The position numbers and the translations under genes were made by a program. 64,000 bases of DNA from Psilocybe cubensis (lineage: Eukaryota), in the NCBI GenBank assembly GCA_017499595.2, contig CM039002.1, forward strand, positions 1,116,001 to 1,180,000, given 5' to 3'. Positions 7,702-32,700 of the stretch are shown piece by piece. The notes under the pieces are model-generated. The model was not told the origin of the DNA. It saw only the letters and a program-made list of their open reading frames with translations, and searched no databases. Position 1 is the stretch's first letter. Every line of letters starts with the position of its first letter.

Positions 7702-7832
7702 AGTGTCGACGTGGGCCCGTGGTACATTGATATTCTAAGTCCCATCGCCTTTGGAACTGATACTGCCCTAGTTAAACTGGCGACTTCGTTGTGTCGTCAT
7801 ACTTTGACGATATGACCTCCATTCTCGGTAGT

Positions 7833-9504: not shown

Positions 9505-9731
9505 AGATAAATCTTATGCATAATGGATAATCTATATAGGAAAATATGCTAATGCTTCGGAATTCGGAGATCCAAATTTGATTGCCAGCAAACCAACAAT
9601 AACATCAACTGTGTTGCAACTGTGTCGACACAAGTCCCCGTCGCCTTTCGAACTGATACTGCCCTAGTTAAACTGGTGACTTTTTTATGTCATCATAATT
9701 CGACGATACGACCACTAGAACTCTCGGTAGT

Positions 9732-11402
9732 ATGCATCAGTGGATTTTGCATTGGGTCAAAGATTTTCTTCTGGTTAGCTTCTTCATTTATGATATAGTA
9801 ACTTCATAACTCACATGAGTTAGCACAGAAGACGCGTCCATGTATCTTCAGAATACCTGTTGAACTGATTATTGAAATTCTCAAATTTTTGGAATGGAGA
9901 GAAGTGTTACTCGTGCGACAAGTATGTGGACAACGTCATTTGTAGCTTGCTACATGCCTCAAACCGGAAATTTAGACGTGTAAATATCTTGCCGGTGTAA
10001 CTACGTCTCGGGCCATTTGGAAAAGACTTGTCGATGAATACCTTGTAACAAGCTTCATGCCGCCAAAGACAGAGCGACCACTCGCGTCGCATTCCTCTCA
10101 GGAGCTCGAGTGTCTATTCCTTCGATGGAAAAGTGCAGATCTTGCTTTTGGATCCGACAAATCTATTACTCCCCAAGAACGTACGTTTATGGGACCCAAG
10201 ACCCACTCTGTATGTCTTATTACAGGAGGGCGCTGGCTATTGAGCATACAGCAAACAGGGGCCGTGCAATATTACGACCTCGATGCAGAGACGTCTGTCG
10301 CCGTCGAGCTCATCCCAGCACAGAGTGAAGAAGCCGTTATTACGTCAACTATCGACTACGACATGGACGCTCCATTTCTGAAATTCAATATTGCGTTTTG
10401 CTACCGAACACAAGATGCGGGCAAAATGGAATCTTATAAATTTCAAGGAAATCGTTGTATATGCAAAATATGGAATGTCGAAGCCATCCTGGATGATACT
10501 AGGCATGTGATTGGCCTCATTGCTACACGGATTGCTTGGTTTCCATTTGGTGTGGAAGTGAACGGTGTGCCCATGCTCTCTCTTCTTGGGTCAAATCTAG
10601 CGTGTATCGCATATATAATGTCTCTTTCACGTTCCTACGAACCCTGTGTAGTACGAATTATCAATTGGCAACAGGCTCACGAAAACCCTCTGCATTATCC
10701 ATTCCGGGTGGTCGAGAGGTTGGATCATCAAGTACGGTTCTCCATCTCACCATGGAACATTTATTGATTTTGTTGAAACAATAGGCATGTGTACAGCTCC
10801 TGCCAACGGGTAAAATCCTCGTTACAGAATGTGGGAATTACAAACTTTACGACTACTTATCTATACCTGAAGGGAATTATACGCCGGAACCACCTATATG
10901 TTCCTATCAGCCAATCTGGAATATAAAAGGACCAAGTAGTGACTGGCCCTTCCGCTGTTTCCTCACAGGGTCACAGGCATACATCGTCATCGGCCAATAC
11001 GCGTTGGTGTCGATGTTGGCATTCGACTATGTGTCCACAACTGGCACCCCACCGTCTGTGAATCTCATTTATCGAAGCGAATGGGCCGATATGCATCGAA
11101 GAGCCACTTACGTTGGTGCGAAGCGTACAATTGCGCTTGGTCGTCTTCACACACTTCGTATTTTGGAGTATTCAACCTTCACCACGTCCAAGGAGCCTGT
11201 AGTACTCCATCAAGAAAGGTTGACGAACATCGAGGTCATCTCCTACCTCATCGCTGATGACAATATTGGGAGATGTGTTTCTATATTTAATGGCTACGAT
11301 GACAGATACAAGCACCAGACCGAATTTCATGTGGTAGATTTTGGCAGACTGCCGAATCAGTTAGCTCAGTCCTGCCAAGTTATACTTGCGGACTGCCTGT
11401 AA
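9732..11402 (+). CDS. F-box protein, array copy 2 (4 exons)
   Basis: Same exon structure as copy 1 and intact; ORFs 10057-10767 and 11004-11402. Confidence 0.85.
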
Positions 11403-11623
11403 AGATAAATCTTATGCATAATGGATAATCTATATAGGAAAATATGCTTCCTCGTACTAACGAAATGATCTGCCTTATACATTAGTATCAAGTAAATTGT
11501 ACCGCCTCCAACTGAACCCCAATGGCATTATTGATCTTCACGGCTCTCACGCAAACATCAGGGCTCTAGGCTGTATATGTGACTGCAGTGTAATGGAAGC
11601 TATTTCTATATTTTACTCTTTCC

Positions 11624-14600
11624 ATGGACCGTTCTTCAACTAAAGAAACAGCACTTGAAGAAATTGAAGGCGTTTTGTCTGAGCCTCGCACACAAGAACA
11701 ATATACCGGTGCTATATGGACCACTAAACGTCCGGAGCTGTGGGCCTACTATCTATACTATGTAGGGAATAACGGACTTTCGGGTTTCAACTTTGGACCT
11801 TCCCAGTTCCAAAATTTGCTATTTCTTGCAGGCTACGATCCGGTAGCTGGCCCTGGTTCAGCATGCAGTGTGAACGGCTGTGTCTTGCCATATCTTGGAG
11901 AGATCCGCGACAGTAAGCCCCTTTCCTTGTTCTTTCTCATTGGCTAACGATCTATCATAGTCAACTCCATCGTCTTGCTTACGAATGGCATCAGTTTTGC
12001 TCTTCAAGCATTTCTGTTACTCCTCATCGGAGCATGGGCCGATTATGGAACTTGGAGGTCTGTTCGACTACGAAAAACCATTTCCTCTCTAAACGGTGAT
12101 ACTCAGGCCAAACATCACCATATTCTTCACATTGATGGCGGTGGGTGTGTCATTTGCCTGGCTTGGGGTTGAAAGTCCCTCCCAATGGCGAGCAGGTGTT
12201 GTCTTGTATATGCTTGGACGTAAGTAATAATGGATTTTTTCTATGGAACCAGCTCAATTTTCATCGTGTAGTTATTACTTATCAAGTATAATTCTCCCCT
12301 GAAACTCCCTCATAGATAATTGACCAACGGACGCTCAGTGTACCCTGACATTCTGGACTGCTGCATTTCCGGGGCTTGCTCAGAACCTTCCAGAAGTGCT
12401 GTTATCAAACAGCGAAGTAGCCAATGGTAGAAAAACGTTTGTTCTTCTTTCTATACCCTGTCCGACTGATGAACTGAGTTCTCCTTTTCATTGTGCGCAC
12501 AGGGTAGAAGAACATAACCGTTTCCACTCCCTTTCCCGCAATCGAATATCGAATATCTCGTTCGCTATTTGCTCCGCCGGGGAGTTGATCATTTTGGCGG
12601 TGATGGTCGGTATACTTCGAGGGATGCATTCAGAACAGAGTACCGAAAGCAATACCAAAGCATTTAGCGTCCTAATCGCTTTTTCCGGCGGCGTTTGGCG
12701 TAAGCAATATTTTGCAGCACTGAATACGCTAAACTTTATAATCACGACCTCGTTGTAGTGCTTTGTGCATTACCCTGGTTCATCCTTGAGAAACGCCGAC
12801 CGGGATTAGATCTTCCGCAAGGAACAAGTTTGTGGACAGTTGGATTCAAGCAGGTGTATGTCGCCTTTCGAGAATGTATGCGATTGAAGCACACCTTTCT
12901 TTATCTCGTCTTCTACTTCTTGATGTGAGAATTCTATGACATCACATTGCATTTCCAAATAATGATACCATCTTTTCTAGGGGCGATGTATTGAATACAA
13001 CTGTGTATGCGATACTTTCAATGAAATCTACATAATTGATTACATTAATGATACATATCCACTTTTGATAGGACTGTCATTGCCACCCTTCAGAATAGGT
13101 AAGATCGCTTGATATCTCTTTTTTTTTTTTTTTTTTTATTTTGTGTTATAGCCTCTGAGGGGTGGGCCCCTCCCTCGGCTTTATACTACTAAGCTACCTA
13201 CTCGCCCCATGGCGATCGTTCCATCCTCGACGCGACTGTGCACCACGGAGGGCCCTCACGTCCCCCCTCAAGGTCCAGCTTTCCTAGGCTGTTTCGTCGC
13301 CGTCTCCGGTTTTGGCGCAGGTTCTTTCGCTTCTTGAATCCTCGCGCTGTTGTACTTCTGACGTGGGTGTTTTTTGTTGTTCCCTTCCTGCTTTGTCCAT
13401 CTATTCCTCTTCTTCGATCCCTCTGTTCAGTAAGTCTTCCTTGTACGGCTTCAATCTCTTCGTCTTTGCTATGTACCGTAGGAGTGCTTTCGCGTTTTCT
13501 TGTTTTGTCGTTAATTCTTCCAAGTCGTAGCACCTTTCTCCGATTTCGTCCCATAATTGTTGTCTTTCCCGTTGGTAGCCTCTACATTCAAACACAAAGT
13601 GCTCCACTGTTTCGGTGGCTCTTACCCCGTCTCGTCGCTCCCAGCACCTGGGGCATGTCTTATCTTGCTCGAGCCTGAGTTTGCTGATGTGATTGTTAAG
13701 CGGGATATGTCCCGATCGCACTTGAATAAGCACGCTCGCTTGTGTCCTGTTCAGCTTTCGCAGCGCCTTTCTGAACTTGTTGAACGGGAACTCTGAGTCT
13801 ATGCCTTCGAACTTCGTTTTCCTATGTGAGGTGTTCCATCTCCCTCGCCATATCTCGAGTAGTTCCTCATGGTAGGCCTGTTTTTCAGCGGACGCGCTTT
13901 TCTTAATCGGGCTCGTTAGTTGTAATGGGAGTTCTTCGGGTGGTGAGCTGTCGCCTTCCGCTGCTCGCTTCGCTTCTTCATCCGCCCTCTCGTTGCCTAG
14001 GACGTCCGAATGTGCCGAAATCCAGTGTATTGTTATGTTTCCCTGCAGATTTTTGAATGCATCGTCAATGCTCTTCATCAGGTGCTGACCGGACTTAGCT
14101 TTGGGTCTCCTCAGGTTTTTCAGTAAGCCCTGATTGTCACTGAATACGTCGATGGTATCGTTGGCCGTGGGCGATTCGTTTTGAATCAGCTTGGAGGCCA
14201 GCAGGCCTCCTACCGCCTCCGCCTCGTACGAATTGTGTTCTTCCTTTGTCCCAAGGTATTTTCGTAGGACTTTGCCATGTCTGTCTTTCCTATCTCTCAG
14301 TAGGATTGCTGCTGCTCCTACCTTCCCATCGTGGCTCGATCCATCTGTGTATATGCGTATGCTGGCTGTGCTGCCCGCTTCGTATATCATTGACAGTTCT
14401 CTCGTTTGGGCAATCACGATTTTGAAGGGTGGGCGGTATTTTGGTGAATATGGCATCGGCTCTATCTTCTCGAAAGTACTGGGTTGTAGGTCGAAAATTC
14501 GGAGTAGGTTGTCAATCGGGGATTTGTGTCGTTTTGGTGGTCTTCTTTCCGCCTTCTCGATTACCGCATATAGTGGGTGACTTACCGGGAGGGTTGCCAT

Positions 14601-17600
14601 TCTGACTGCTGCCCTGTGGCAGGCTTTCAGCAGGGCTAGTTCTAGCGGTAGGACGCCCGCATGGGCGTCTAGCAGTTCCGTGGGTGTTGTCCTCATCGCG
14701 CCGGTTATTGATAGTGTTGCTTTCCTCTGTATTGTCGACATTCTTCTCAGCGCCGCCACTGATCCGATGTTGTTTCGATAACCCGGTGGTTTTGTTGGTG
14801 GTGTGTACCAAACGTCTATGCCATATGTGAGTCTTGGAAGTACCGTCGCGATGAACAGATGTCTTAGGAGGTACGGGTGTATGCCCGTCGTCGGTTTTGC
14901 CAGTCGTTGGAAGTTTGCTACCCATCTTGTTGCTTTGTCGGTCGCTGATTGAAGGTGAGTTTTCCAGTTTAGTTGGCAATCGACTTGGAATCCTAGGCAC
15001 TTGAACACATTGACTTGCGGCACTAGTTCGCCGTCGAACTCGAGTCTCGGGTGGGTTAGATTGTTAGGGTTTCGCGGGTCGAGGTGCATTACTGCCTGTT
15101 TGGCGGGGGCAAAGTTTGAGTTGTGGCTACTGCTCCATGTGAGTGCACCGTTCTCCTTATGGATTAAGTCACTCAGCTTGTCTGTTGTTTCGTCTGTATC
15201 ATTCCCTATTGCCATGATCGTAACATCGTCAACGTAGCCTATGGCATCCTCTCCGTCTTCGCGGTCAACTATTTCAAGCAGGTCAGCATTATATATGATG
15301 TAAAGTATCATTGATAATGGATCTCCTTGTCCTATTCCGTTATCAATCTCCATCAGTGCTGACACGAAGTCATCGAATTTGAGCTTGGTTTTCCGGTTCC
15401 TGAGCAGTTCTCGTATGAAGTTGACATATACTGTCGGTATGCGTCGTCGTCGTAAGTTGTGAATGAGTCTGTCCGTTACCGCGTTTGGAAAAGCCCCTTC
15501 CACGTCTAGGAACAGCATTGAGACTACTTTACCCCGCCTCCAGGCTGCTTTAACCTTGCTGACCATGTAGTGCATTGCGTCGGTGGTGGTTCTCCCAGGT
15601 CTGCCTCCGAAATGCGTGTTTGGTAACAACTTGTGTTCTTCGACCGCATGGCTTATTCTTTCCGCCACGATTGCCGTGAGGACCTTGGGCAGGGTGTTTA
15701 GGAGAGCTATTGGCCTGTACGCTTTTGGCGTTTTATAGCTGGGTTTGCCTGGTTTCTTCAGTACTACCGTCATTGAGTGCTTCCACGAGTCTGGGTAATG
15801 GCCTGTTTTAAGGATTGCATTGTAGATCGCGTGTAGCCGGTTCATGATGAGCGGGGCTGTTTTCTGCAACACGATGTTGGGTATTTCGTCGATTCCGCAT
15901 GCCTTGTACGGCGACAGACGTTCCAGCTGCCTCCTGATTTGTTGCCGTGTTATTCGCCCGTCGTCTGGGAGTGCTTCCGGGTATTCAAAATTCTGTGGTA
16001 CAGACGATTGAACCGGTTTTTTAGGAAAGAAGTTGTGCGCAAAGATCTTAGCTTTTTCCTCATTGGACGATACTTCCTCTTGTTCGTCGTACTCGTTGGT
16101 GACCGTCAGGGTTGGTATTCTGGGGCGTCCTCCATCCCCTATCGGGTTCTTGAAGTAGCGGTTTGCCGTCCAGATGTCGGTGCCTTCGGCGTCGAGTAGC
16201 CAGTCGTCCCAATGCTTGCGTTTTGTGTCGATTACGAGTCGAGCAAAGCTCCTCTTTGCTGCTTTGAATTCATCGTGGCATGGGTGGAGAGGGGTGGTGC
16301 GGAACTTGTGGTGTAGACGGCTCAGTCGGTTTTTGTAACGTTTGGCTTCTTCTATCTCGCTTGTCCACCATCGTTTGGCTTCGGGGAAGGGCTTTCTCAA
16401 CTTCACTTCCTTGTTGATGGTGTCCTGGAGTGTTAGTGTCAGCATGTTTACCGCCTCATCTATCTCTTCCCCTGAGTTCAGGTCCAGCTGGTCTTCTTGT
16501 TCTTCCAGTCGTTTCTCAAGCGTCTTGCAGAAGTGTTCCCAATTCACCGTACGAAAGTTTCTTTCCAGCGTTACTTTAGCGGTCTCGCATCGCATGTCAA
16601 TGGTTGTATGTATTGGGTAATGGTCGGTGTTGGCTGGCCGTGTTGCATAGTCGACTTTACATTGGATGACTGCATCGATGAGCTTTTCCGAGATAAAGAC
16701 GTTGTCCGGCCTTGAGAGCCTCTTTGTCACCATGTGTTCCAGCGTCGGCATTCCCTTGGGTAAGGCTTGGGCCATGTTGTGTTCCTCGATAAAGTCGATC
16801 AGTCGTTCCGCTTCCGCTAACGCTTGTGGTGTGAACAGTCGTTCGTCCTCGTCTCGGTCCCACATCGGGTGGTGATGATTGAAGTCTCCCGCCCACATTT
16901 GCATAGTGTCGGCTTTGTTGAGCTCCAGCTGATTTTCTTCTATATACCGCCTCAGTATTTGCAGCGTGCGTCCCGTGCGTCCTGGGTGATATATGTTGAA
17001 AATGAAGAGTGTTCCTCTGTCGCTTTTGATCTTTATTGCCGTCAAATCGTTTGTGTCCGGAAATGGGATTTCACACCAACTGCTGGTATCAAGATTCTTG
17101 TTGACCCAGATGCCTGAGCGGGTTACCTCTTCATTTGTTCTGCTTACCGGGTACACAGGGCGATAGTATGCGTTAGTTCTGATGTTGCCAAAGCGTGTTA
17201 TATGGGGTTCTTGAATGAGGATTACGTCGTAGTTGCTGCCGAGGCTACTGTTTATTAGCTCGAGGTGCGCTACCTCCGACTTGTTCAAGTTTATCTGTAG
17301 GAACCTGATTTGGGTGGTATGCTGCTCTGCGAGGATGGTAACACTCATCTTTTACTGGTCTCTTTCTTCTGAGGCGGACGCCGCCGTATCACTTTCTTTG
17401 CTCGCCGGGTTCGAGCTTGATGCCTTTGCTGCCTCTGGTTCGGGACTCTGCTCTGGTGTTTTCGGCAGTTGCGATCGATCTCTCGTTGGTGGCTCTATCG
17501 TCCATCTGGGGGATTGCCCCCTTGCGAAGCGGTTTCTTTGTATGGTCGGCGGCGCTGAATTTGTGTTCATACTCCAGGTCCACGGTTCGTCCGTTGGGAT

Positions 17601-20203
17601 GAAAGGAAGTAGGTTTTCGGGTGTGCGTTCGTTCTTTTCGAGGGCTTTCTTGATGAAGGTTGGGCACGTTCTGGCGTAACTGGGGTGGTCGTCGGAGTCA
17701 CATGAAACGCAGTGGGTTGTCGTTCTCTCGCAGTTTTGTGTACGGTGGCCCTTCTCTCCGCAGTGGCCACATACGTCGTGTTTGGAGGTGCACTCTTTTG
17801 CGAAATGATTGTACCCTTGGCACTTCATGCATCGTATGGGATCGGCTCTGCATTTCTGAACTCTTACTCTTTTGTTTGCTATGAACATCCCGATGGCGAT
17901 TAGCCTGTTCGCTTCGCTGGCGTCGCTAACCGTTATGATTATGTGTGCGCTTTGCTGCCCTTCGGCTCTCCTCGATATCTTCTTTGCCCAGCGCATAGCT
18001 ACGATCGTACCCTCGTCGATTCGGTTGGCCTCCTCCACTTCCTTCACGAAGTCGTCGTCTTCGGGTTCGGCTGAGAGTGGGGCCCCCATCGCAATAAGTT
18101 CGTAAGTTCTCTTCTTCGTTGTGACATCGTCGCCTAACTGTTTGCATAGGTTCTTTCTATTGTTGTCGATACGCATCCATGCTGCTCCATAGTCGGAGTC
18201 GAACTCGATTAGAAGTCCCCCGTTTCTTTGCTTGATTGCCGACCGTATTCGTACTGATCCCTCTGGTTCGAGTTTTTGCAGAGCACTGTTGATAAAATCT
18301 TTAGCCTCTCTGTCCCCCATTGTACTTACCTTCGCTTCTTTATTTAACCCTTCTAGCATAGTTTGTCTCGCCTTTATTCCGTGTCTCGCTATCATTTTTG
18401 GGTTGGTGGCCACGTTGGATTGGACCAGTACTTGACTAAAAGTGGGTTGCCCCTTCATCACTGCCTGGCTGTAAGCCATCCCGTTGTTTGGAGCTTGCTG
18501 CGCGTTTTTCGTCGATGCCGATTTGATAAGATCTGCGGTCGCCAGATTTATTTCCTCGAGCTTTTGGTCGACCTTCTCCTGTGCATGTTGGACCAGGGAT
18601 TTAATTTCGTTCGTGAATGAGGCGAGCTCTTCACCGAATCCGTCGTGGTAAGTCTGTGTCGCCAGCGGGAGTTCCATTTCTTCGAGCAAGAAGGCTAGAC
18701 CACGCATGGCCTGTACTACGATCGGCGGTGTCTTCGACGACATTAGCGATATCTGGAATAGGCAAGCGGCGGCCCGGTGTGCCGTCAGTCCCTGTCCAGC
18801 TGGCACCAAGAGCAGGTGCTCCTCCAGTATCGACCGGCCGCCTTTTGCGTCCTGGACCTGCTGTGTCTCTTCGTTTATCACTGTACCTTTACTCCTTGAG
18901 GATCTATCGGGTGGTTGCGATTCTCCCGGGCTCGGAGTTGGGGGATTTCCCATGGTTGTCTTCCTGGCACGAGCCGTGCCGGTGTTGACGTTCATTTGAC
19001 AGTTCTAATGGGTGTGGGTGTTTTTGGATGTTTTTGGGCGTGGGGTGGTACTTTTTAGGTACGTTTTGTGGTTTTACTCTACTCGACTGCTTGTTTTTCA
19101 CCTTGCAGGGCTGTTCCTCGCGCTCTATGTGCGTGGGAAAAGTTCTGGAGGTGGAAGTAGCGGATCAAGGAGCGGTTTGATATCTCTTATTACTGATACT
19201 GATGACGTCTCAGCGTAGTACTGTATTCGACTTTGGATCTTACGCTGCTTCTAATTGTAGGAATCGTAGCTCAAGGATTAGGCATTTAGTTGAGTTTATT
19301 TCTATATCATGCATTGATGAAACTCAAAAAAGGTCGAACAGTATCTTTTGGCGCGTTCAGAAATATTATAGAATCTCAACAAAAGCAGTGCGTATAGAAT
19401 ATCTCTGTTACTTGATCATTGGCACAATTCTGATGAGAATAATCATTGTTAGATGCTCTCATTCAATGTCGTATGGATAATTGTAAGTGATAATCACTTC
19501 TTCAATGCCCGTAGGCCATTTTGTTAAAGATTTTAACTCAATATAGGTATTGACAATATGGGGCTTGATTGGTGTCCATACCAATAAGTTCGGTTTCAAG
19601 CATGTATGGGAAATCTGGTAAGTTGTCGTTTTATCTTATCTTTATTGCATGTTCTGAGCCGCAATGCAGGTTGTATCAGGTGTTCTATGGATTGATGGTG
19701 TGTCCATGGTATGCATACAGTCAAACCATGATAAGTGAAGTCTCCCCTTTGCCTCAAATGTACGCTGTGACTTGTGTCTTTCCGATATATGACCGATGAT
19801 ACCATCTCGTTTCAGGTTTCTTTTCTTCGCCCTTTTTTCAGTTGTACGTACGCTCACTTTGTAATGATTTTTTTCACAATTAAACGATAACTAAACCTTA
19901 TGGATAGGTTGGCAAGACGTCGGCCTTCATAGGCCCTCTCGTGTCCAGTGCCATCATTACTGCCTCGGATAATAACGATAACATGCCATTTGCTTTTCTT
20001 TTTGCCTTGTGCGTATGGTTACCAGTTTGATTTTGATAACCAGCTAAATATCGATATTCAACAGAGGGATTATCAGCACGCTTTTTCTCTATTTGGTGGA
20101 CGTTGAAAAAAGCCATCAGGAATGCAATGAGTTCATCATAGCAGAGAGCAAGCGGGACGCATTCAAAGCTACACTGCCTGACAGTGGGACAAGCTGCTCT
20201 TAA
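11624..20203 (+). CDS. ATG22: Vacuolar amino-acid efflux MFS transporter Atg22; multi-exon, with a LINE inside one intron
   Basis: ELWAYYLYYVGNNGLSGFNFGPSQFQNLL, LLIGAWADYGTW, PWFILEKRRPGLDLP, QVFYGLMVCPWYAYSQTMISEVSP, VGKTSAFIGPLVSSAII. Exons resume in frame at 19214 after the LINE. Confidence 0.9.
13401..17348 (-). CDS. LINE ORF2: AP endonuclease, reverse transcriptase, RNase H and C-terminal CCHC
   Basis: APE (FLQINLNKS, ILIQEP, AGDFNHHH, TDHYPI); RT (YRPIALL, LDVEGAF, GIGQGDPLS, YVDD); RNase H (IYTDGS, WISAHSDVLGNERADEEAK); CPRC..ETVEHFVFEC. Confidence 0.97.
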   Translation of the reverse strand: MSVTILAEQHTTQIRFLQINLNKSEVAHLELINSSLGSNYDVILIQEPHITRFGNIRTNAYYRPVYPVSRTNEEVTRSGIWVNKNLDTSSWCEIPFPDTNDLTAIKIKSDRGTLFIFNIYHPGRTGRTLQILRRYIEENQLELNKADTMQMWAGDFNHHHPMWDRDEDERLFTPQALAEAERLIDFIEEHNMAQALPKGMPTLEHMVTKRLSRPDNVFISEKLIDAVIQCKVDYATRPANTDHYPIHTTIDMRCETAKVTLERNFRTVNWEHFCKTLEKRLEEQEDQLDLNSGEEIDEAVNMLTLTLQDTINKEVKLRKPFPEAKRWWTSEIEEAKRYKNRLSRLHHKFRTTPLHPCHDEFKAAKRSFARLVIDTKRKHWDDWLLDAEGTDIWTANRYFKNPIGDGGRPRIPTLTVTNEYDEQEEVSSNEEKAKIFAHNFFPKKPVQSSVPQNFEYPEALPDDGRITRQQIRRQLERLSPYKACGIDEIPNIVLQKTAPLIMNRLHAIYNAILKTGHYPDSWKHSMTVVLKKPGKPSYKTPKAYRPIALLNTLPKVLTAIVAERISHAVEEHKLLPNTHFGGRPGRTTTDAMHYMVSKVKAAWRRGKVVSMLFLDVEGAFPNAVTDRLIHNLRRRRIPTVYVNFIRELLRNRKTKLKFDDFVSALMEIDNGIGQGDPLSMILYIIYNADLLEIVDREDGEDAIGYVDDVTIMAIGNDTDETTDKLSDLIHKENGALTWSSSHNSNFAPAKQAVMHLDPRNPNNLTHPRLEFDGELVPQVNVFKCLGFQVDCQLNWKTHLQSATDKATRWVANFQRLAKPTTGIHPYLLRHLFIATVLPRLTYGIDVWYTPPTKPPGYRNNIGSVAALRRMSTIQRKATLSITGAMRTTPTELLDAHAGVLPLELALLKACHRAAVRMATLPVSHPLYAVIEKAERRPPKRHKSPIDNLLRIFDLQPSTFEKIEPMPYSPKYRPPFKIVIAQTRELSMIYEAGSTASIRIYTDGSSHDGKVGAAAILLRDRKDRHGKVLRKYLGTKEEHNSYEAEAVGGLLASKLIQNESPTANDTIDVFSDNQGLLKNLRRPKAKSGQHLMKSIDDAFKNLQGNITIHWISAHSDVLGNERADEEAKRAAEGDSSPPEELPLQLTSPIKKSASAEKQAYHEELLEIWRGRWNTSHRKTKFEGIDSEFPFNKFRKALRKLNRTQASVLIQVRSGHIPLNNHISKLRLEQDKTCPRCWERRDGVRATETVEHFVFECRGYQRERQQLWDEIGERCYDLEELTTKQENAKALLRYIAKTKRLKPYKEDLLNRGIEEEE
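17352..18995 (-). CDS. LINE ORF1 gag-like protein with three zinc knuckles
   Basis: CMKCQGYNHFAKEC, CGHCGEKGHRTQNC, CVSCDSDDHPSYARTC. Confidence 0.95.
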   Translation of the reverse strand: MNVNTGTARARKTTMGNPPTPSPGESQPPDRSSRSKGTVINEETQQVQDAKGGRSILEEHLLLVPAGQGLTAHRAAACLFQISLMSSKTPPIVVQAMRGLAFLLEEMELPLATQTYHDGFGEELASFTNEIKSLVQHAQEKVDQKLEEINLATADLIKSASTKNAQQAPNNGMAYSQAVMKGQPTFSQVLVQSNVATNPKMIARHGIKARQTMLEGLNKEAKVSTMGDREAKDFINSALQKLEPEGSVRIRSAIKQRNGGLLIEFDSDYGAAWMRIDNNRKNLCKQLGDDVTTKKRTYELIAMGAPLSAEPEDDDFVKEVEEANRIDEGTIVAMRWAKKISRRAEGQQSAHIIITVSDASEANRLIAIGMFIANKRVRVQKCRADPIRCMKCQGYNHFAKECTSKHDVCGHCGEKGHRTQNCERTTTHCVSCDSDDHPSYARTCPTFIKKALEKNERTPENLLPFIPTDEPWTWSMNTNSAPPTIQRNRFARGQSPRWTIEPPTRDRSQLPKTPEQSPEPEAAKASSSNPASKESDTAASASEERDQ

Positions 20204-20838
20204 ATTGTCTGTTGATCAAGAGAGAGGTTTATGCTAGTGACCGATCTCTTACCGATTCCATGTGGAATCGGACAGACACACGAGTGTAACTTGATAAGTA
20301 CATAAAGTCCTCAGTCCGGTGTATATCCTATCGGAGTTCAGATCTCACTCCCCGTCTCCTTGACTTGATCATAGACTGTATCGCGCCTCGGATAAATAAA
20401 AGAATTCTTACGGATTTTCTGGAGACTTGACCCTCTTTTCTTGCTTCATATCTTATTGAGCACACTTGTTACATGTCGTAATTGAAAGAATACGCCAAGG
20501 TCAATTACTTGCGTGCTTTTCGTTATCCGACCAAGCCGTGTGAATCGGCCGAATGAGACTTTTTAGCTCTCCTCACGCGCTCTATTTTTGACTTTGGACC
20601 TGACCAGTGACTCGGACAATGCACAAGTCGACCAACAGGGTCCCTCTCTACTCATCTGCACAACAAGGGATCCACATGGTTTGTTTGCCATAAAGCATAG
20701 AATCACTGCCATGAAGTTCCGCATGCCCATTCCGAAACCTGATATCTATTCTAGGATACACATCCATGTGTGGTTATAAACTGGCTCCACCAGCGCTTGC
20801 GCAGCCCACATATCCCGACGTGTGTGTCGCTAACAGTC

Positions 20839-22579
20839 ATGTCTACCTCTCGCTCTGCGGTAACTCGGCCTTCTTCTTCCGGTCCCCTGACTGGAAACAA
20901 TCCTGCTTCTGCCCTTGTTCCTGAGAATGTTGAAGCATCTGATACGTCAGAGTTGCCTGCCTACGTGCCGAGTACAAGGTCATCTTCAAGGTCCAGGAGA
21001 AGGGAATTTCCAGAATTCAAAGAATTTTCTTACGATGCGAAGAATCGAAAAGGAAAATCAGTCGTTATTCTCACTGTAATTGCAGAGCGGTCGTATTCAA
21101 AGCATATACCCACTTTTCTCCAAGACTCTCCTGTTAAAGGAAGAGTCCACCTTGACCTTGACAAGCCCGAATCTATCTTGTCTGTGGTTCTGAATGTAAG
21201 TCATTTCCTTCTTTGTGTTCTGTGTACGTTTCGCTTGAATGTATATCAGATACGAGGTGAATACCTTACGGGCGCCAATCCAGACCAGCAGCTCATTTTT
21301 CTTGACCTTGCCTATCCTCTGTGGTCGCAATCCGACGGTGATCCTCAAAGAATGAATGTTCTCAGAGAAACAGAATCTCTTACTCGCCAAGGATCCTCCA
21401 CCCTTTCTGCAAGATTCAACGGCCCGAAGCTCGTGGGTCAATATACGTGGCCATTTTGCATTACCCTCCCTAAGGAAGTCAGTGTACCGTATGGGAAAGG
21501 CAAAGCATTACGGTCCTTTGCTCTTCCTCAAACATTCAATGAGCGACATGCGAAAGGCAGCATTAGATATGAGATATCCCTCAGAATTAACCGCGGTAGA
21601 TTCCAGCCGAATTACAGGTATGTAATATTAGGCAGATCCACGGAAGATGTTAACGCATTTTAGGATCCCTGCAACAATTGGGTACATACCAATATCACGA
21701 CCTCCTCCATTCCCACCTCTCAGAAGTATGTGCTATCAAGAAGGGACAACACTTCTCGGCCCTACTATTGACCCTGACGGTTGGTTTTCTGATACTCCTG
21801 TCACTATCAAAGGGACAATATTTAGTGCCCGTGCAGTTCACGTTACATGCACAGTATGTACCAATCTTTGCACCTTCCCAAGTGACAATCTTGTTGATTA
21901 TCAAACTGTCCAATCAAGTTATGTTTGGCTAAGCCTGTCAGTGCATCAGCTTTTCTGATTGATCTGTGTGGTACTGACAATATCTTTTAGCTATGCTATA
22001 CTCGAGGCTCAGTGATCCCATTTTTTATGCGCCTCGAGAGCGACGACTTTCAGGCTCTGGATTTACTGTCTAATCCCAAGTCCATATCTGTCTCTCTCCA
22101 GAGACGTATCAAATATCATGCCTTTCCGGAGAAGGTGTTGGGCTCCTTTGCCAAGGATTCCGTAGAATATGTGCAGCAAGCTGTATGGTGGCCATCATCC
22201 GAAGGTGTGGAAGTCAATGTGGAACGGTTTCGATTTTTGAACGGAGAGCTGCATCTCAAGGCCGACACGAAACCCAGTTCAGCAATAGCAGATTTTTCTA
22301 TAGAGGTAGGAGGTCTACGTTTCGTATGTCATGGACAGACTGGACATTGAACTAATATTTAAACAATGACTGCTGCAGTACTCTGTTGTGCTCTTCCCTT
22401 TCAAGTCTGCCGGCTTCGAGGCTTCTGACAACGGACCGCTTCAGACATACCCCGTTGAAATTGTCACCTCCTTTGCACATGGGCCGCGGCCCAGAAAATA
22501 CGCGCCTCCTGGGTATGACGCAGATACACCCCCATCTATGGATTTTGTGAATTTGGATCCTGTGGCCTATAGTTCTTGA
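20839..22579 (+). CDS. Arrestin-like (alpha-arrestin fold) protein, multi-exon
   Basis: VKGRVHLDLDKPESILSV, GQYTWPFCITLP, LPQTF..IRYEI; PY-type motifs LPAY and PPGY. The start may include an upstream exon. Confidence 0.7.
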
Positions 22580-22918
22580 AGCCAAGCTCGCAGCGTCGTT
22601 ATGTGTATATTTCTTCCAATGCCAGGATTATTTTATTGTTTCTTTCTTTCTTTTTCGGGTTTTCTTAATTTATATGTAAGTGTGTACCTAGTTATTAGTA
22701 GTGTTAGTATACCATCTCTTTCCAATTCGGGACTGGTAATTGCAGGTTTGTGTATCAAATTCATGTTTGAACGAGCACCCGGCACTACTTGATCGAAAAC
22801 GCGTCACGACTGTCATAGTATGTAGGTTGTCATGTGACTTTAGTGATGACCAGTCCGTGAATTAGCTGCAGAAGTTTTTCGTCTTTGGGCATTGCCTACG
22901 AGTGCAGTCTAGCACGAA

Positions 22919-25820
22919 ATGCACCGCTGCCTCCGTTCAAGTCTTTCCCACTTCTCCAAAACACCTGGAGGAGCTACTTTTGGACATGCGCGTCGGAGCG
23001 CTTCTAGTGTTAATGCGCCATCTTCAATGCAGGCAGGGCCTTCAAAACACTCGCCGAAAACTCTACCTAAACCTGAGCGGCCGAAGGAACAAGTTGGAGT
23101 GGCAAAGAACACAAAGAACGACATTGTAAAACTGTATGACATGAAAAGGTCCTTGGATCCCGCTTTGGAAGAATCAGGGCAATTAGCTCAGATTATAGCT
23201 GAAGGTGAAGATGAAGACTCTTCGGAAATGGCTTTTTTACCTGGCACATTCGTTGAAATAAGGAAGTGCGTGATTACTCTCTTATGCCACTTACTCGTCG
23301 ATTTGATGTTTTCATGCAATTAGAAATGACCTTTCTGCTTATGGAATTGTGCTGGGAGAAGTAATTGAAGAACACAGATATGGCGTTTACACTCTGACGA
23401 CGAAAGGCATGATCATTAGCCATTTTCGTGCCGATGTTTACTTCGCTTTTCCAAACGTCATATCTGCGTCCCTGGCCGAGCGTTGCGATTTTAGCAACCC
23501 TACGGTAACTACAGAAAATAATTCCGCACGCGTAGAAGCCCTAAAAAAGCTGCGTGTATTGGTCGCCGAGGTTGAAAAGTATTCTGCGGGTATGTTGCAA
23601 CGGCCGATGAATGTGTACGTCGAGGTTATGTCAAACGACAAGACCAAATGGTCAACAACAACGGTATCGCACGTTGCCAATTTATTGTACGAACGCCCTA
23701 GCTTCATGGATTTTTACATGACACACAAGATGCTCATGGACCAACCACTTTATTATATCGCCAAGCCAGGTTACCTTAAAAATCAAGCATTCGCAGTACG
23801 GCCGCGACAGCAGGTAGAAGAGATAGAAACAGTGACTCGGTACATATACGATCATCGCATAAGCAGGTCCGACCAGCAAACACATTTCAAGAGGTTCGTT
23901 TCAAAGGCTTCAAAAGTGGTCAAGGAGTTCGAAAGGAGGAGGGATTCTGGACCGATCAGTCAGGAGAAAATTGAGGTGGAATGGGATGTAGAGGACCGAA
24001 TCTTCATTAATTTCCTCATCCGTTCGTTACAACCTCATCGATCCAACCAATTGGACCCCTACACAATGGGACGCACTGAAATCGTCAGAGCCATTTTCCA
24101 ACCAACAGAGCCAGTCAACGACGACATGACTCACCAACTTCTCATCAAGCTGGGTATCTTCGCACCATGGCACGACCTTCACGAATTCGTACCTTTTCTT
24201 AATCCCTGGGGTGACCTATATTCAAACAAGCACACCATCGAGACTGAAGCCAACGAAATTTTGAAGCTGTCGCACGCATCAACAGCTACAACAGGCTCTG
24301 TACTCGGTCCCATGGACCTCATCCCTTCGGATCCTCTGGAATCTGTTCGCCACGATTTTGGAAATGCTCGGGTGTTCGTCATCGATGACTTGACTGCACA
24401 AGAACTCGACGACGGTTTCTCCGTGGAGCGTATACCCTCTGAACCCGACAATTGCTGGATCCATGTTCACATCGCAGATCCTGCAAGCGTTATACACCCA
24501 AACCACGCTTTGGTCAAATTGGCACGTCAGCGGGGGTCCTCGTATTACCTTGCCCACAAAACGATCCCCCTCTTTCCGGTTGCCCTAGTCCACGATCCTA
24601 AATACTCGCTGTCACTCCAATCGCGTGACGGCGAATCTACCCGTGTTTTGACTTTCAGTACTAAAGTCGACAAAGACGGCAATATCCTAGACTACAAAGT
24701 ACGCGGAGGTCTCATTCGTAACGTCAAAAAAATCAGTTATGACGAAGTTGATATGGCCATCGGTCATGGCCTGGTCAAAAGATCGTTGCCATTTGGTGGT
24801 ACAATACCCTCCATCTCCGTGCCCACATCGCTGGATGAGGCCGACCTCGCAGATATTAAACTTGCTCAACAAGTGGCCCAAGGGCAGATACGTCGTCGTA
24901 TGAAGAAGGATGTTTTCATTTATGACGATCACTCTGCTCATGTTAGGTGGGACAGCACTATCCCTCCCAATATTGTTAGCCCAACTTTGGGGAGTAACTT
25001 ATATCATGGGTACCCTGACATGACATACGAAGTTTATACGATTGAAGAGTATGAATCTGGTTCCCGTTTGATTATAGCAGAGATGATGAAGTTGGCGAAT
25101 CGGACAGCATCGCGAGTGGTACGCGACCACAATCTACCTGTATTACGACGCACCATGGATCCTCCCATATTCAGCAACCCCGAAAGCAAACAAGAGATCA
25201 TGGACTTGCGATCACCTTCGGGGCATGTTTTGATGCAAGAAGTCGCGAAGCGCGTCGACCTCAATCCCGTCGGGATGTTCTGTTTGGAGCCGAAGCAGCA
25301 CTACGCTCTCGGGATTGAGGAAGGGGATGGTTATGCCCGTGCGACATCGCCTCTGCGCCGGTTCGAAGACATCGTGTGCCATTGGCAGCTACACCACATT
25401 CTGCTTGGATCCCAATCCCCGCGAGCGCCATTTTCTGTCGCCGACATCGAAGCCATTCTCGGGGACACGGAGATGGCGTTTCAACAGCAAAAAGTTGTCA
25501 ACAAAAGCATAAAGCTATTTTATTCCCTGATGTACATCAAGAGGTTTGCGGATGACGTTGCGAAAGGCATACGTGATCCCGGTCCAGTGGATCCTCTAGC
25601 TTCGATGTCGGCCTGGACGAAGAATACACCCCGGGTGGTGACAAATACGTCCCAGATGTCTTTGTCGGTAAACGTACCCCACCTGGGCGTGACGGCGCAA
25701 GTGGACGACCTTCCATTCAGCATGAGGAACCTTCCTGTCGGCAGTGAGTTGCGCGTCAAGTTCAAGTCAATTGATCTGGGTATCAAGAGGACAAAGATGG
25801 TTGTGTCGCTCGAGCAGTGA
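22919..25820 (+). CDS. Mitochondrial RNase II/RNB-family exoribonuclease (Dss1/Cyt-4-like)
   Basis: FVIDDLTAQELDDGFS, WIHVHIADPA, IIAEMMKLAN, YARATSPLRRFEDIVCHWQL; presequence-like N-terminus; one intron at ~23266-23323. Confidence 0.88.
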
Positions 25821-26625
25821 AGGCTCCTCTCGTAGTTGTATTTGGTTGGAGGGGATTTTTCGGTGCTGTGAACCCAGATCGCAGGGCGGCAAATCATCGA
25901 TTCAGACTGGGAATTTATATAATACATGTAGTATAATCATTGTTCTATAGATGTAGGCTCTCTACCAACTTGATACCTAATCATAATAACCCCAGCTTTC
26001 TATTGTTACGCCGGTCATTGCTCTACCAAACAAAGTTGGGGAATCCGACAATACTATATTATATTTCGCTTTTTGCGAAGTTGGATACTATCGTTTGTTG
26101 ACCGTCATCGCCTGGGTTTGGTACGATTGCAGTTCAACAAAGTGGTAGTGGGTCGGTGGTTAAGCGGCTTCAATTGGAGTCGGGGAAAGCCCTCACCAAT
26201 AAAATTTTGAATAACCAAGCAATTTCACTATGTGTTCTTGACAAATAGCTTAAACCAGAGAAGACACACGACACCGTCCTTAAATAGTACAAAAGTGAGA
26301 TTTGGAAAGCGAAAACAGCAAAAGGTAAAAGAAAAGACAGACAGAGGAACAGATGGGTTTTGTAACTGCATGGTAAAGATTTAGAGTCCATTTGACTGTC
26401 TACCATTGAATGTCCACCACATAAAACTCACTAACCAGAAGAAAATCTTTGACCCAATGCAAAATCAACCGATGGTGGTCATATCGTCGAATTATGATGA
26501 CATAACGAAGTCGCCAGATTAATTAGGGCAATATCAGTTCGAAAGGCGACGGGACTTACGGCGACACGTTGTTATTGTTGGTAGTGCTGCCGCCACAGCG
26601 CAGTGCAGTGACAGTGCAGCGTATT

Positions 26626-28290
26626 TCAGTCCGCAAGTATAGCTTGGCAGGACTGAGCTAGCTGATTCGGCAGTCTGCCAAAATCTACCACATGAAATTC
26701 GGTCTGGTGCTTGTATCTGTCATCGTAGCCAGTAAATATAGAAACACATCTCCCAATATTGTCATCAGCGATGAGATAGGAGATGACCTCGATGTTTGTC
26801 AACCTGTCTTGACGGAGTACTACAGGCTCCTTGGACGTCGTGAAGGATGAATACTCCAAAATACGAAGTGTGTGAAGACGAACAAGCGCAATTGTACGCT
26901 TCGCACCGACGTAAGTGGCTCCTTGATGCATATTGGCCCATTCGTTTCGATAAATAATATTCATAGACGGTGGGGCGCCAGGTGGGGACACATAGTCAAA
27001 TGCCAACATCGACACCAACGCGTATTGGCCGATGATGATGTATGCCCGTGACCCGGTGAAGAAACAGCTGAAGGGCCAGTCACAACTTGGTCCTTTTATA
27101 TTCCAGATTGGCTGATAAGAACATATAGGTAGTTCCGGCGTATAATTCCCTTCAGGTATAGATAAGTAGTCGTAAAGTTTGTAATTCCCATATTCTGTAA
27201 CGAGGATTTTGCCCGTTGGCAGGAGCTGTACGCATGCCTGTTGTTGCAACAAAATCAATAAATGTTCCATGGTAGGATGGAGAACCGTACTTGGTATTCT
27301 AACCTGTCGACCACCCGGAATGGATAATGCAGAGGGTTTTCGTGAGCCTGTTGCCAATTGATAATGCGTAGTAGACAGGGTTCGTAGGAACGTGAAAGGG
27401 ACACTAAATATGTGATACACGCTAGATTTGATCCAAGAAGAGAGAACATGGGCACACCGTTCACTTCCACACCAAATGGAAACCAAGCAATCTGTGTAGC
27501 AATGAGGCCAATTACATGCCTAGTATCATCCAGGATGGCTTCGACATTCCATATTTTGCATATACAACGATTTCCTTGAAATTTATGAGATTCCATCTCG
27601 AGCGCATCTCGTGATTGGTAGCAAAACGCAATGTTGAATTTCAGAAATGGAGCGTCCATGTCGTAGTCGATAGTTGACGTAATAACGGCTTCTTCACTCT
27701 GTGCTGGGATGAGCTCGACGGCGACAGACATCTCTGCATCGAGGTCGTAATATTGCACGGCCCCTGTTTGCTGTATGCTCAATAGCCAGCGCCCTCCTGT
27801 AATAAGACATACAGAGTGGGTCTTTGGTCCCATAAACGTACGTTCTTGGGGAGTAATAAATTTGTCGGATCCAAAAGCAAGATCTGCACTTTTCCATCGA
27901 AGGAATAGACACTCGAGCTCCTGAGAGGAATGCGACGCGAGTGGTCGCTCTGTCTTTGGCGGCATGAAGCTTGTTACAAGGTATTCATCGACAAGTCTTT
28001 TCCAAATGGCCCGAGACGTAGTTACACCGGCAAGATATTTACATGTCTAAATTTCCGGTTTGAGGCGTGTAGCAAGCTACAAATGACGTTGTCCACATAC
28101 TTGTCGTACGAGTAACACTTCTCTCCATTCCAAAAATTTGAGAATTTCAATAATCAGTTCAACAGGTATTCTGAAGATATATGGACGCGTCTTCTGTGCT
28201 AACTCATGTGAGTTATGAAGTTACTATATCATAAATGGAGAAGCTAACCAGAAGAAAATCTTTGACCCAATACAAAATCCACTGATGCAT
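26626..28290 (-). CDS. F-box protein, array copy 3
   Basis: Same 4-exon structure; ORFs 27255-27965 and 26626-27486. Ends ..ILAD* (two residues shorter than the others). Confidence 0.85.
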
Positions 28291-28557
28291 ACTACCGAGA
28301 ATTCTAGTGGTCGTATCGTCGAATTATGATGACATGAAAAAGTCACCAGTTTAACTAGGGCAGTATCAGTTCGAAAGGCGACGGGACTTGTGTCGACACA
28401 GTTGATGTTAGTGTTGGTTTGCTGGCAATCAAATTTGGATCTCCGAATTCCGAAGCATTACAATTTACTTGATAATAATGTATAAGGCAGATCATTTCGT
28501 TAGTACGAGGAAGCATATTTTCCTATATAGATTATCCATTATGCATAAGATTTATCT

Positions 28558-30228
28558 TTACAGACAGTCCGCAAGTATAGCTTGGCAGGACTGAGCTAGC
28601 TGATTCGGCAGCCTGCCAAAATCCACCACATGAAATTCGGTCTGGTGCTTGTATTTGTTATCGTAGCCATTAAATATACAAACACATCTCCCAATATTGT
28701 CATCAGCGATGAGGTAGGAGATGATGTTGATGTTCGTCACCCCTTCTTGACGGAGTACTACCGGCTCCTTGGACGTTGTGAAGGATGAATAATCCAAAAT
28801 ACGAAGTGTGTGAAGACGAACAAGTGCAATTGTACGCTTCGCACCAACGTAAGTGCCTTTTTCTTGTAGAAGGACCGTTTTGTCTCGATAAACGATATTC
28901 ATAGACGGTGGGGTGCCACTTGGGGACACATAGTCAAATGCCAGCATCGACACCAACGCGTATTCGCCGATGATGACATATGCCCGTGACCCGGTGAAGA
29001 AACAGCTGAAGGGCCAGTCACAACTTGGTCCTTTTATATTCCAGATTGGCTGATAGGAACATATAGGTTGTTCCGGCGTATAATTCCCTTCAGGTATAGT
29101 TAAGTAGTCGTAAAGTTTGTAATTCCCATATTCCGTAACAAGGATTTTGCCCGTTGGCAGGAGCTGTACGCATGCCTGTTGTTTCAACAAAATCAATAAA
29201 TGTTCCATGGTGGAATGGAGAACCGTACTTGGCGTTCTAACCTCTCAACCACCCGGAATGGATAATGCAGAGGGTTTTCGTGAGCCTGTTGCCAATTGAT
29301 AATGCGTAGTAGACAGGGTTCGTAGGAACGTGAAAGAGACATTATATATGCGATACACGCTAGATTTGACCCAAGAAGAGAGAGCATGGGCACACCGTTC
29401 ACTTCCACACCAAATGGAAACCAAGCAATCCGTGTAGCAATGAGGCCAATTACATGCCTAGTATCATCCAGGATGGCTTCGACATTCCATATTTTGCATA
29501 TACAACGATTTCCTTGAAATTTATAAGATTCCATTTTGCCCGCATCTTGTGTTCGGTGGCAAAACGCAATATTGAATTTCAGAAATGGAGCGTCCATGTC
29601 GTAGTCGATAGTTGATGTAATAACGGCTTCTTCACTCTGTGCTGGGATGAGCTCGACGGCGACAGACATCTCTGCATCGAGGTCGTAATATTGCACGGCC
29701 CCTGTTTGCTGTATGCTCAATAGCCAGCGCCCTCCTGTAATAAGACGTACGGAGTAAGTCTTGGGTCCCATAAACGTACGTTCTTGCGGAGTAATAAATT
29801 TGTCGGATCCAAAAGCAAGGTCTGCACTTTTCCATCGAAGGAATAGACACTCGAGCTCCTGAGAGGAATGCGACGCGAGTGGTCGCTCTGTTTTTGGCGG
29901 CATGAAGCTTGTTACAAGGTATTCATTGACAAGTCTTTTCCAAATGGCCCGAGACGTGGTTACACCGGCAAGATATTTACATGTCTAGATTTCGGGTTTT
30001 AGGCATGTAGTAAGGTATAAATGACGTTGTCCACATACCTGTCGTACGAGTAACACTTCTCTCCATTCCAAAAATTTAAGAATTTCAATAATTAGTTCAA
30101 CAGGTATTCTGAATATATGTGGACGCGTCTTCTGTGCTAACTCATGTGAGTTATGAAGTTACTATATCATAAATGAAGAAACTAACCAGAAGAAAATCTT
30201 TGACCCAATGCAAAATCCACTGATGCAT
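28558..30228 (-). CDS. F-box protein, array copy 4
   Basis: Same 4-exon structure; ORFs 29193-29903 and 28558-29208. Confidence 0.85.
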
Positions 30229-30562
30229 ACTACCGAAAATTCTAGTGGTCGTATCGTCGAATTATGATGACATAAAAAAGTCACCAGTTTAACTAGGGCA
30301 GTATCAGTTCGAAAGGCGACGGGGACTTGTGTCGACACAGTTGCAACACAGTTGATGTTATTGTTGGTTTGCTGGCAATCAAATTTGGATCTCCGAATTC
30401 CGGCAGCGAGTTTATTTTTGGATGATTTATGTGTTCACGTGCTCACGACGGTCCTCTGACGGACAATCCCGGACACCTTATTCCGCTCAACGACGTCGAC
30501 CACGACGAGCTCACCTAAACCCATTTTTCGGCTCGTCAAGGCTATAGCCTAACAGCTTCGGG

Positions 30563-32700
30563 ATGTATCGAGCTCTCCCTGTGTCGCGGCAGGCCGCCTC
30601 GACTTCCAACAGACAAGCTGTCAGAGTCATTAGACGGGTAAAGTTCAAGTATCCTTGTTAAATATCCAATCTTGACTATATATCCTTTGTAGCACCTGGC
30701 CACGGATACCACAACCCCGCCAAAGAAAAGCAAAGTACTTCGCCGCATTATTTTGACTACTGCTGGCTTAACTGGTACATTCTACGTTGGGAGCGCGTTC
30801 CTCGCGTTTAATAACCAGGCCTACTACGACATCTTCTCTGAACAAGTGCCTCTCGGTCAATCTGTGCTCGACTTCGGTGAGAGCCAAGGTTGGGACACTT
30901 TGACTGTCGGTGATGTCATCAATGGGACTACTGGGTTGGTTGTCACCACATACAATTTCGCGAAAGATATGATAAATGGAACCACGCCAGAAAAAAACAA
31001 GGCACCAGTTGAAACGAAATCTGCGGAACCCAAGTCCCCCTTCAAAGTGGTTAAACAGACGACTTCAGCCAAAATTGAACCTGCTGTACAGCAGGTGAAG
31101 AAAGAGGTTGAAGAAGTCAAGGAAGCTGTAAAGGAGGCGGCTGTCAAGGTGGAAGATGTAGCGAAGGAGGTCACCGACAAAGCTCGTATTGAATACCAAG
31201 ACTTAGTGAAGAGAGCGGAGGCTGCCATTGCTGGAGCCTCTAAAGACGGCAACCCCCCCAGCGTCATCACCATCGAGACCACAGAAGAGGAAGAAATCCC
31301 CCCTCCATCCTCCAAAAATGTTTATGATCGTCCCCTTCCCCTTGGGTTCGAGCCTCCTCCAGGATTCTCTCGCCCCGCACCTCCCCCCAAGCCCAAAGTG
31401 ACTGAAGCTGAAGCCCAAACACCTGTACCTGAACCCGAGCCAGTTGAACTTCCTTTAGTAGCGCCAGTTGTTGCCACTGCTTCAGAACCTATCATCACAC
31501 ATTTGGCCGGTACAATTGATAACCTTGCCAGTTTTTTGAAGTCGGATCCTAAAGCTGCTCAACAAGCTGGAGACGTTCTAGAAACTGCCAAAGGTGACTT
31601 GGCCGCCCTTGTAGATCGAATGGAGGCTGTCAAAGAACAGGAACGGGCTGCTTTGGAGGCGAAAATGGACGAGCAAACTCGGGAGTATAGCCTCAAACTT
31701 TTGGAACTGGAGATGGAAGCCCAGGATAAATTGGACCATCAAGAAGAAGGTTTCAAGCAACTCTTTGAACAGGAGCGCGCGAGTTTCGTACAGGCTTATC
31801 GGGAGAAGCTGGAACACGAACTCAAGGTTCAGACAGAGTTGATCAACGAACGGTAAACCGTTTTATGCGTTTGTCAAACTTTTGTCCTGATGCTTTAAAT
31901 TAGATTGAAGGAAGAGGTCATTGCCCAAGGAATTGAACTACAAAGACGCTGGATTCGAGAGATCAAAGTTCGCGTTGAACAAGAAAGAGGAGGCAGGCTT
32001 GCCAAATTGGACGAGCTTTCTGCCAACTTAAAACGCCTGGAAAGCATTGCTCTCATCAACTCTGCTCACCTCGACGAGAACATCCGTGTCCATTCACTTT
32101 GGTCCGCCATTCGCGCTCTTACGAACAGCGCTATTTCCTCCCCGGTGCGAAAACCTTTCCGAGATGAGCTCCGTGTACTCCGGCATATCACTGCGGCGAG
32201 GGAGGATCCTGTCGTTTCTGTCGTTCTTGATTCCCTGGAAAGCACTGATGTTCCTGATGTCGGCGTGGAACCATTGGCTGATCTTGCGACCTGGTTCACC
32301 AACGAGGTGGCCCCAAAAGTATCACAGGTTGCGTTGGTACCTGACGAAAATGCTGGCGTTTTGTCTTACCTCGCCAGCCGTGCTCTTTCGGGCCTCCGCT
32401 TTAAGCGCCAAGGACTCATCCCTGGTGATGACGTGCTGAGTGTTCTGGCTAGAGCCGAGTATTACCTGAACGAGAAGAACCTGGACAGTGCCGCACGTGA
32501 ACTAAATCAGCTCAAGGGGCCCGCAAAGGTTTTGCTACATGACTGGCTGGAAGCCGCCCGACGGAGACTAGAGGTCCAGCAGGCATTAGAGGTGAGCTCA
32601 CAAAATAGAATAATTTACAGGTGTCCAAGTTACTCAAATAATAAATTACAAATAGGTGGTCCAGACGCAAGCCACATTGGCTTCGCTTCTTGTCGTATAG
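30563..32700 (+). CDS. MIC60: MICOS subunit Mic60 / mitofilin
   Basis: Presequence MYRALPVSRQAA, TM segment, YYDIFSEQVPLG, coiled coil, VEQERGGRLAKLDEL, mitofilin domain DVLSVLARAEYYLNEKNLDSAARELNQLKG..DWLEAARRRLEVQQALEV. Confidence 0.93.

Follow-up and report, generated by a model that had tools for sequence, protein, structure and literature searches.

In Drosophila, inversions can arise through breaks and non-homologous end joining (Ranz et al., 2007, PMC1885836); the staggered-break model needs no prior inverted repeat, and the event itself leaves inverted copies at both ends, as new duplications from the staggered breaks. Another behavior is described in human genomes, in which inversions between inverted segmental duplications recur and toggle (Porubsky et al., bioRxiv 10.1101/2021.12.20.472354), and in Saccharomyces cerevisiae the inversions engineered at Ty1 sites often came at little fitness cost (Naseeb et al., 2016, PMC4915352). 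The locus considered here lies in a stretch of 64,000 nucleotides of Psilocybe cubensis (GenBank assembly GCA_017499595.2, contig CM039002.1, positions 1,116,001 to 1,180,000; G000:C5:1116001-1180000), called the window hereafter, where one inversion very probably split both a tandem array of four F-box genes and the head-to-head promoter shared by ATG22 and MIC60. As in the Drosophila model, no inverted repeat had to exist beforehand, but here the inverted copies stem from a tandem array of greater age, which a cut at a single point divided into two halves, 0–3 bases being duplicated and 6 lost. The locus resembles the human cases in that a unique interior is enclosed by kilobase-scale inverted homology and its orientation is invisible to short reads, whereas its first flip was not driven by homology, its arms are only ~93% identical, recurrence was not seen and a re-flip would yield new isomers, never the ancestral promoter. 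It is also, like the yeast constructs, a few-gene inversion in a fungus, but a natural one placed inside a conserved head-to-head promoter. The type of rearrangement is thus ordinary and already known, and the case is new: the locus is undescribed in the literature titles and abstract openings searched, and supplements could hold strain-level variant lists.

The self-comparison that had been proposed in a first-pass annotation of this DNA recovers, by self-BLAST, four F-box units of ~1.9 kb each in two opposed arms, U1 and U2 on the plus strand and U3 and U4 on the minus strand. The four units share 91–96% pairwise identity (92.7% for arm versus arm), and each gives an unbroken gene model of 500–503 amino acids (aa). 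The features on which the argument depends are given below in the coordinates of the window, together with their status in three strain data sets (X1, X9 and X13).

7624-9557, plus strand: F-box unit U1, found by self-BLAST; coding sequence ~7833-9504, 503 aa, three introns of 53–54 nt
9558-11501, plus strand: F-box unit U2; coding sequence ~9732-11402, 502 aa; terminates at the left breakpoint
11501/11502: left breakpoint, where the array spacer, minus 6 nt (atgctt), now meets the ATG22 side of the former promoter; bridged by X1 contig 7, while X9 contig 16 begins at 11502
11624-20203, plus strand: ATG22, single orthologue in the assembly (G000); exons look unbroken, one short intron holds a long interspersed nuclear element (LINE)
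26430-26582, minus strand: start remnant of a fifth unit, the former right end of the array; the joint is found also in X1, X9 and X13
28452-26627, minus strand: F-box unit U4, 500 aa, with its stop codon formed at a truncated 3′ end
28441-28470, minus strand: intact long-type U3-U4 junction, the template for interpreting the break
30402-28453, minus strand: F-box unit U3, 502 aa, start codon at 30228 (174 bp away from the break), facing MIC60 head-to-head in the present order
30402/30403: right breakpoint, where the start of U3 abuts the MIC60 side of the former promoter, as read from the junction letters
30563-32700, plus strand: MIC60 (mitofilin)

The left arm ends in ...caagtaaattgta at 11501 and the right arm starts with cggaattcggag at 30402 on the minus strand; between those two points the intact junction near 28441-28470 has an extra atgctt. 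These strings, with ends only 6 nt apart in the unit, had already been reported from the first reading and the re-read letters agree with them. For a unit of 1,950 bp, the chance that two independent ends land no more than 6 nt apart is ~0.7%. A diverged copy of the same spacer is also present upstream of U1, so the spacer predates the break; with two break ends at one point of an older tandem array, the inverted arms are a product of the inversion and not its cause. The match between the array ends was also considered as a by-product of tandem duplication and ruled out by the diverged spacer before U1, the fifth unit start after U4 and the older paralogues nearby. Both breakpoint flanks are single-copy in G000, and inspection of the junction sequences revealed no transposon remnants at either one. 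Since one break lies in single-copy promoter DNA, recombination between repeats did not make the inversion; breakpoints inside pre-existing inverted repeats, the mark of non-allelic homologous recombination, were not found. Inverted gene-bearing arms around a gene block can therefore be left behind when an inversion cuts through a tandem array and are not necessarily what caused the flip. The break is 122 bp from the ATG of ATG22 and 160 bp from that of MIC60 (282 bp in total), in line with the earlier statement that array DNA lies within 120–160 bp of both.

The gene order of other mushrooms indicates which arrangement is the older one. ATG22 and MIC60 are consecutive, by locus tags or accessions, in 14 of 21 readable pairs: two Agrocybe, Amanita phalloides, Hohenbuehelia, Tricholomella, Bondarzewia, Galerina, Crassisporium, Panaeolus papilionaceus, Pholiota conissans, Gymnopilus junonius, Cyclocybe, Crucibulum and Pluteus. 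One further pair is two gene numbers apart. Many pairs were chosen for lying on contigs of the same length, which makes 14/21 a biased rate, and the count excludes two pairs with JGI model numbers (Amanita thiersii and Armillaria solidipes). Among 40 metagenome loci, ATG22 is head-to-head with MIC60 in 12 (four of them related to each other) and in tandem in 1; the ATG-to-ATG gap is ~100–340 bp in several loci and ~3 kb in two. Because the pair is consecutive or head-to-head in these relatives, the gene order of the window is derived, and the two outer breakpoint flanks are adjacent in outgroups, as they should be for a true inversion. A computed un-flip of the window sets the start codons of ATG22 and MIC60 head-to-head 282 bp apart, which bears out the ~280 bp of the first-pass annotation. 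The present order in relatives and a flip made by the assembly had been named beforehand as outcomes that would speak against an inversion, and neither turned up. In a distant relative (L024) ATG22 lies in tandem upstream of MIC60, indicating that the pair has been re-oriented elsewhere too. By numbering, the RNB exoribonuclease gene of the interior is not within three genes of the pair in relatives (11 to >100 accessions away); RNB synteny was left unused as evidence, as numbering in some assemblies seems not to track position.

Strain reads and contigs were compared over 9560-26400, a range that includes the left junction only. X1 contig 7 covers 11455-13107 and 19177-26400 with 0 differences, so that this second data set contains the derived left junction, reaching 47 bases into the array, and an empty LINE site. 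X9 contig 16 matches from exactly 11502, and the 1,851 bases preceding this point do not fit the array, which points to an unflipped allele in which MIC60 would be expected there; X9 has no LINE at the ATG22 site either. X13, available as raw reads, is heterozygous in the ATG22 promoter for variants of the X9 type (13 of 31 reads at 11523 and 11 of 27 at 11571). Over the long unit junction X13 has 38 reads, when the depths of 14 single-copy bins predict 23.4 for a homozygous inverted genotype (P = 0.003), 35.1 for a heterozygote and 46.9 for a homozygous unflipped one. X13 thus looks heterozygous for the inversion and is unlikely to be homozygous inverted, and the inversion allele appears to be polymorphic and segregating in P. 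cubensis. The array depth of X13 is 3.8–4.1x single copy, so there are ~4 units in this strain too. Run X12 was tried as an outgroup and rejected, having given scattered short pieces and contigs of other organisms.

The strain data also order the events. The LINE is younger than the inversion because X1 has the junction and an empty LINE site; for the same reason the size at formation was ~12.8 kb, the inverted segment minus the LINE and one target copy being 12,833 bp. The first-pass annotation had given ~19 kb, having missed that 6.07 kb of the 18.9 kb is the later LINE. The ancestor would have carried U1-U2-U3-U4-remnant followed by the RNB gene, the arrestin-like gene and ATG22 on the minus strand and then MIC60 on the plus strand, with ~280 bp between the start codons of the last two. 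Double-strand breaks in the U2/U3 spacer and in the ATG22/MIC60 promoter would have been repaired crosswise through end joining that used hardly any homology or none; six spacer bases would have been lost, up to three promoter bases perhaps duplicated and ~12.8 kb inverted. The 6.07-kb LINE entered the ATG22 intron afterwards, on the inverted haplotype. The inversion and this account of it are held with high confidence. Synteny and strain data agree on a single inversion that split both the four-unit array and the gene pair, and the order array, inversion, LINE is fixed by the strains. The case is unusually readable, with both breakpoints resolved to a few bases and a probable heterozygote available.

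Some observations weigh against this account. Six of the 21 pairs are far from consecutive, four with both genes on a contig of equal length and two on different contigs, and 27 of the 40 metagenome loci lack ATG22, many being too short to show one. No ATG22 of a sister Psilocybe was found among the matches listed (best 120). The X13 read count is also compatible with a homozygous unflipped genotype (P = 0.11), MIC60 is the presumed content of the X9 overhang, and the read support pertains to the left junction.

An assembly error across a tangled repeat could be imagined, since the units are 91–96% alike, the read comparison covers the left side and X1 is a possible source of the assembled DNA. 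On the other hand, at both junctions repeat passes into unique DNA and the 6-nt loss is clean, X1 bridges the left one with its 47 array-side bases and is not letter-for-letter the assembled DNA because it lacks the LINE at the ATG22 site, and a misassembly within the arms could misorient the interior but not create these junctions; such an error is exceedingly improbable. It is also very improbable that the right arm arose as the copy of a two-unit A-B block in a staggered-break inversion or an inverted duplication. The A-B-A-B order, which the earlier reading had obtained after the un-flip, does hold at 43 of 60 informative sites, and the staggered-break model is documented in Drosophila (PMC1885836). 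The pattern alone cannot separate a split array from an inverted duplication, and the units are mosaics, since 16 sites, mostly in one central tract, group U1+U4 against U2+U3 (1 site groups U1+U2). The divergence of the arms is, however, far older than the allele, which X1 matches over 8.9 kb without a difference; X13 has ~4 units per haploid genome and the X9 array has a summed contig depth of 3.6–6x single copy (a rough measure); and both ends lie at one spacer point with a small loss and no overlap. Near-identical duplication at both breakpoints was not observed, at most 3 bases being duplicated.

Regarding the joining itself, the triplet CCG is present at 11502-4 with its inverse copy at 30401-3, and the first-pass annotation read it as microhomology. 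The triplets exist, but they are too short to show microhomology repair and are seen only in the derived state; in the partly inferred reconstruction of the ancestor, the only match between spacer and promoter is a self-complementary CG at the right junction, with none at the left, and a small duplication from a staggered cut would account for the triplet just as well. A match of 2–3 bases is easily given by chance, so joining guided by the CCG/CGG triplet is improbable. A further alternative is a flip-flop switch in which the arms recombine often and toggle the interior, as inverted repeats do in human genomes (bioRxiv 10.1101/2021.12.20.472354). The arms measure ~3.8 kb and contain identical tracts of 344 bp (U1/U3), 184 bp (U2/U4) and 163 bp (U2/U3). 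However, a divergence of ~7% should suppress crossing over, the re-flipped state was not seen, in short reads that could not reveal one, and a re-flip leaves the same type of neighbor at both junctions for every gene, so that little would be switched. A frequent switch has almost no probability.

End joining of two breaks being the favored origin, later crossing over between the arms may still occur rarely, because identical tracts reach 344 bp. By geometry, a 2+2 isomer would follow from a crossover of U1xU3 or U2xU4, and a 3+1 isomer from one of U2xU3 or U1xU4. All these isomers retain both junction strings, short reads cannot distinguish them, and none restores the ATG22/MIC60 promoter. The suggestion of the first-pass annotation that the interior could flip again is therefore sound in principle, but such a flip would never reunite ATG22 with MIC60 and no re-flip was observed.

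The break fell beside a conserved motif.

30436-30441 (CACGTG) and 30460-30465 (CGGACA), plus strand: motif that is conserved ahead of MIC60 in relatives; the break left it next to MIC60

CACGTG was found 58–151 bp upstream of MIC60 in 11 of the 20 loci with a located start (28 loci scanned, 8 without located start dropped; L035-L038 are related at 88–100% and not independent), against a background of 3.8% per 200 bp, and CGGACA lies just downstream of it in 7 of the 20. In the window CACGTG is 33 bp from the break. The likely effect is that MIC60 keeps the motif while ATG22 is severed from it and the F-box unit U3 now faces it; ATG22 would have only 122 bp of native upstream sequence left and stands in tandem behind U2, U3 having become the divergent partner of MIC60. 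A bolder reading would be a segregating promoter swap: a bidirectional CACGTG+CGGACA element, which has linked ATG22 with MIC60 in gilled mushrooms and further afield, would now drive an F-box gene; ATG22 would be under-expressed on the inverted haplotype and hence tolerant of the LINE; and the split array would be a segment with several orientations hidden from short reads. This is conceivable but unlikely. On the side against the main account, the motif is also upstream of MIC60 without an adjacent ATG22 (L030 and L048), so it may be an element of MIC60 only, and four of the five translated X9 coding differences in ATG22 are silent, which together with the unbroken exons means that no decay of ATG22 is visible. 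An allele-specific view of what the long-conserved head-to-head layout of ATG22 and MIC60 is for becomes possible at this locus.

The insertion in ATG22 is a complete element with a possible partner.

13121-19176, minus strand: full-length LINE with first open reading frame (ORF1) 17352-19004 containing a CCHC knuckle, second open reading frame (ORF2) 13401-17351 of 1,316 aa, stop-free, and poly(A)

ORF2 has endonuclease, reverse transcriptase and RNase H domains, and a 12-bp target duplication (13109-13120 and 19177-19188) flanks the element, which thus has everything expected of an autonomous LINE of the APE-RT-RNase H type: two open frames, endonuclease, reverse transcriptase, poly(A) and target-site duplication. 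Its twin on another contig (L011, G000:C4:2349602-2355659) differs by 3 in 6,056 bases (99.95% identity), and the insertion in the ATG22 intron is very young. Fungal introns are short, and a 6-kb antisense insert in an intron of <50 nt probably blocks splicing of ATG22 in G000. Users of the assembly should be aware that ATG22 is interrupted here and that the local gene order is not the sole one in the species. The X1 contigs hardly cover the element; in X13 it has ~1.5-fold depth and mixed flanks, so X13 holds copies at other sites.

G000 was searched query by query and repeat counts are lower bounds. There are at least two full-length relatives of the LINE at 71% identity, with ORF2 broken in both, and at least seven loci (L062-L068) that match it only at the 3′ end. 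Five of these seven are elements of 1.5 kb that carry poly(A) and lie between direct repeats. Three of the five have an open reading frame of 442–458 aa; it showed no likeness to LINE ORF1 by BLASTP and no Pfam family was found for it. All seven loci have in common a 52-base 3′ tail (LINE 13138-13190), in which 48 of 52 positions agree with the LINE, its C4 copy and both relatives at 71%; the hairpin predicted before the poly(A) is the same. This tail explains a loose end of 173 reads in X13. One locus (L064, G000:C11:1220400-1222500) has a truncated element of the 1.5-kb type that directly follows the 5′ kilobase of a LINE with 75% identity, which may be a nested or chimeric insertion. LINEs and their non-autonomous partners are recognizable by a common 3′ tail (PMC5786205 and PMC3747384). 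As in those pairs, the likeness here is the shared hairpin-bearing tail; unlike a small-RNA-headed short interspersed nuclear element, the partner is 1.5 kb long with its own frame of ~440–460 aa. Because this tail is shared, the LINE family, rather than this copy in particular, likely mobilizes these retroposons, a lead drawn from sequence comparison that may matter more than the inversion.

Concerning the array, the U3-U4 spacer has 52 nt more than the U1-U2 spacer (9540-9557), in which ATGCT flanks the loss on either side, and the short form is present in X9 and X13 too. In X9 the summed contig depth given above, taken over 9560-11245, is accompanied by a short-spacer depth of 2x single copy, which suggests, as a rough measure, that array copy number varies. 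The F-box label rests on longer relatives, of which 14 of 16 chosen match PF12937 in Pfam (12 above the cut-off) and have the N-terminal motif of the family, as the 31-aa F-box exon alone (E = 0.049) is below the cut-off; no Pfam family was found for the C-terminal exons. Older F-box paralogues or remnants flank the locus on both sides (window 4297-4932, 38104-38517 and 39125-40491), with others at G000:C5:1111991-1112789 and C5:1003832-1004569. Some of them lie on the minus strand beyond MIC60, which hints at earlier rearrangements.

The remaining genes of the inverted interior are the following.

20839-22575 (end approximate), plus strand: arrestin-like gene; the label is a lead only, from Atlas neighbors at 0.80–0.87 with Arrestin_N or Vps26
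22919-25820, plus strand: RNB-domain exoribonuclease, whose main exon matches a named Psilocybe cubensis protein at 100% identity

Two exons of the arrestin-like gene gave no Pfam match. Beyond MIC60, a 21-bp repeat at 32862-32957 encodes YEPQQP units, and 36623-37405 on the minus strand encodes glutamine-rich, FG-containing repeats, which resemble those of a nucleoporin.

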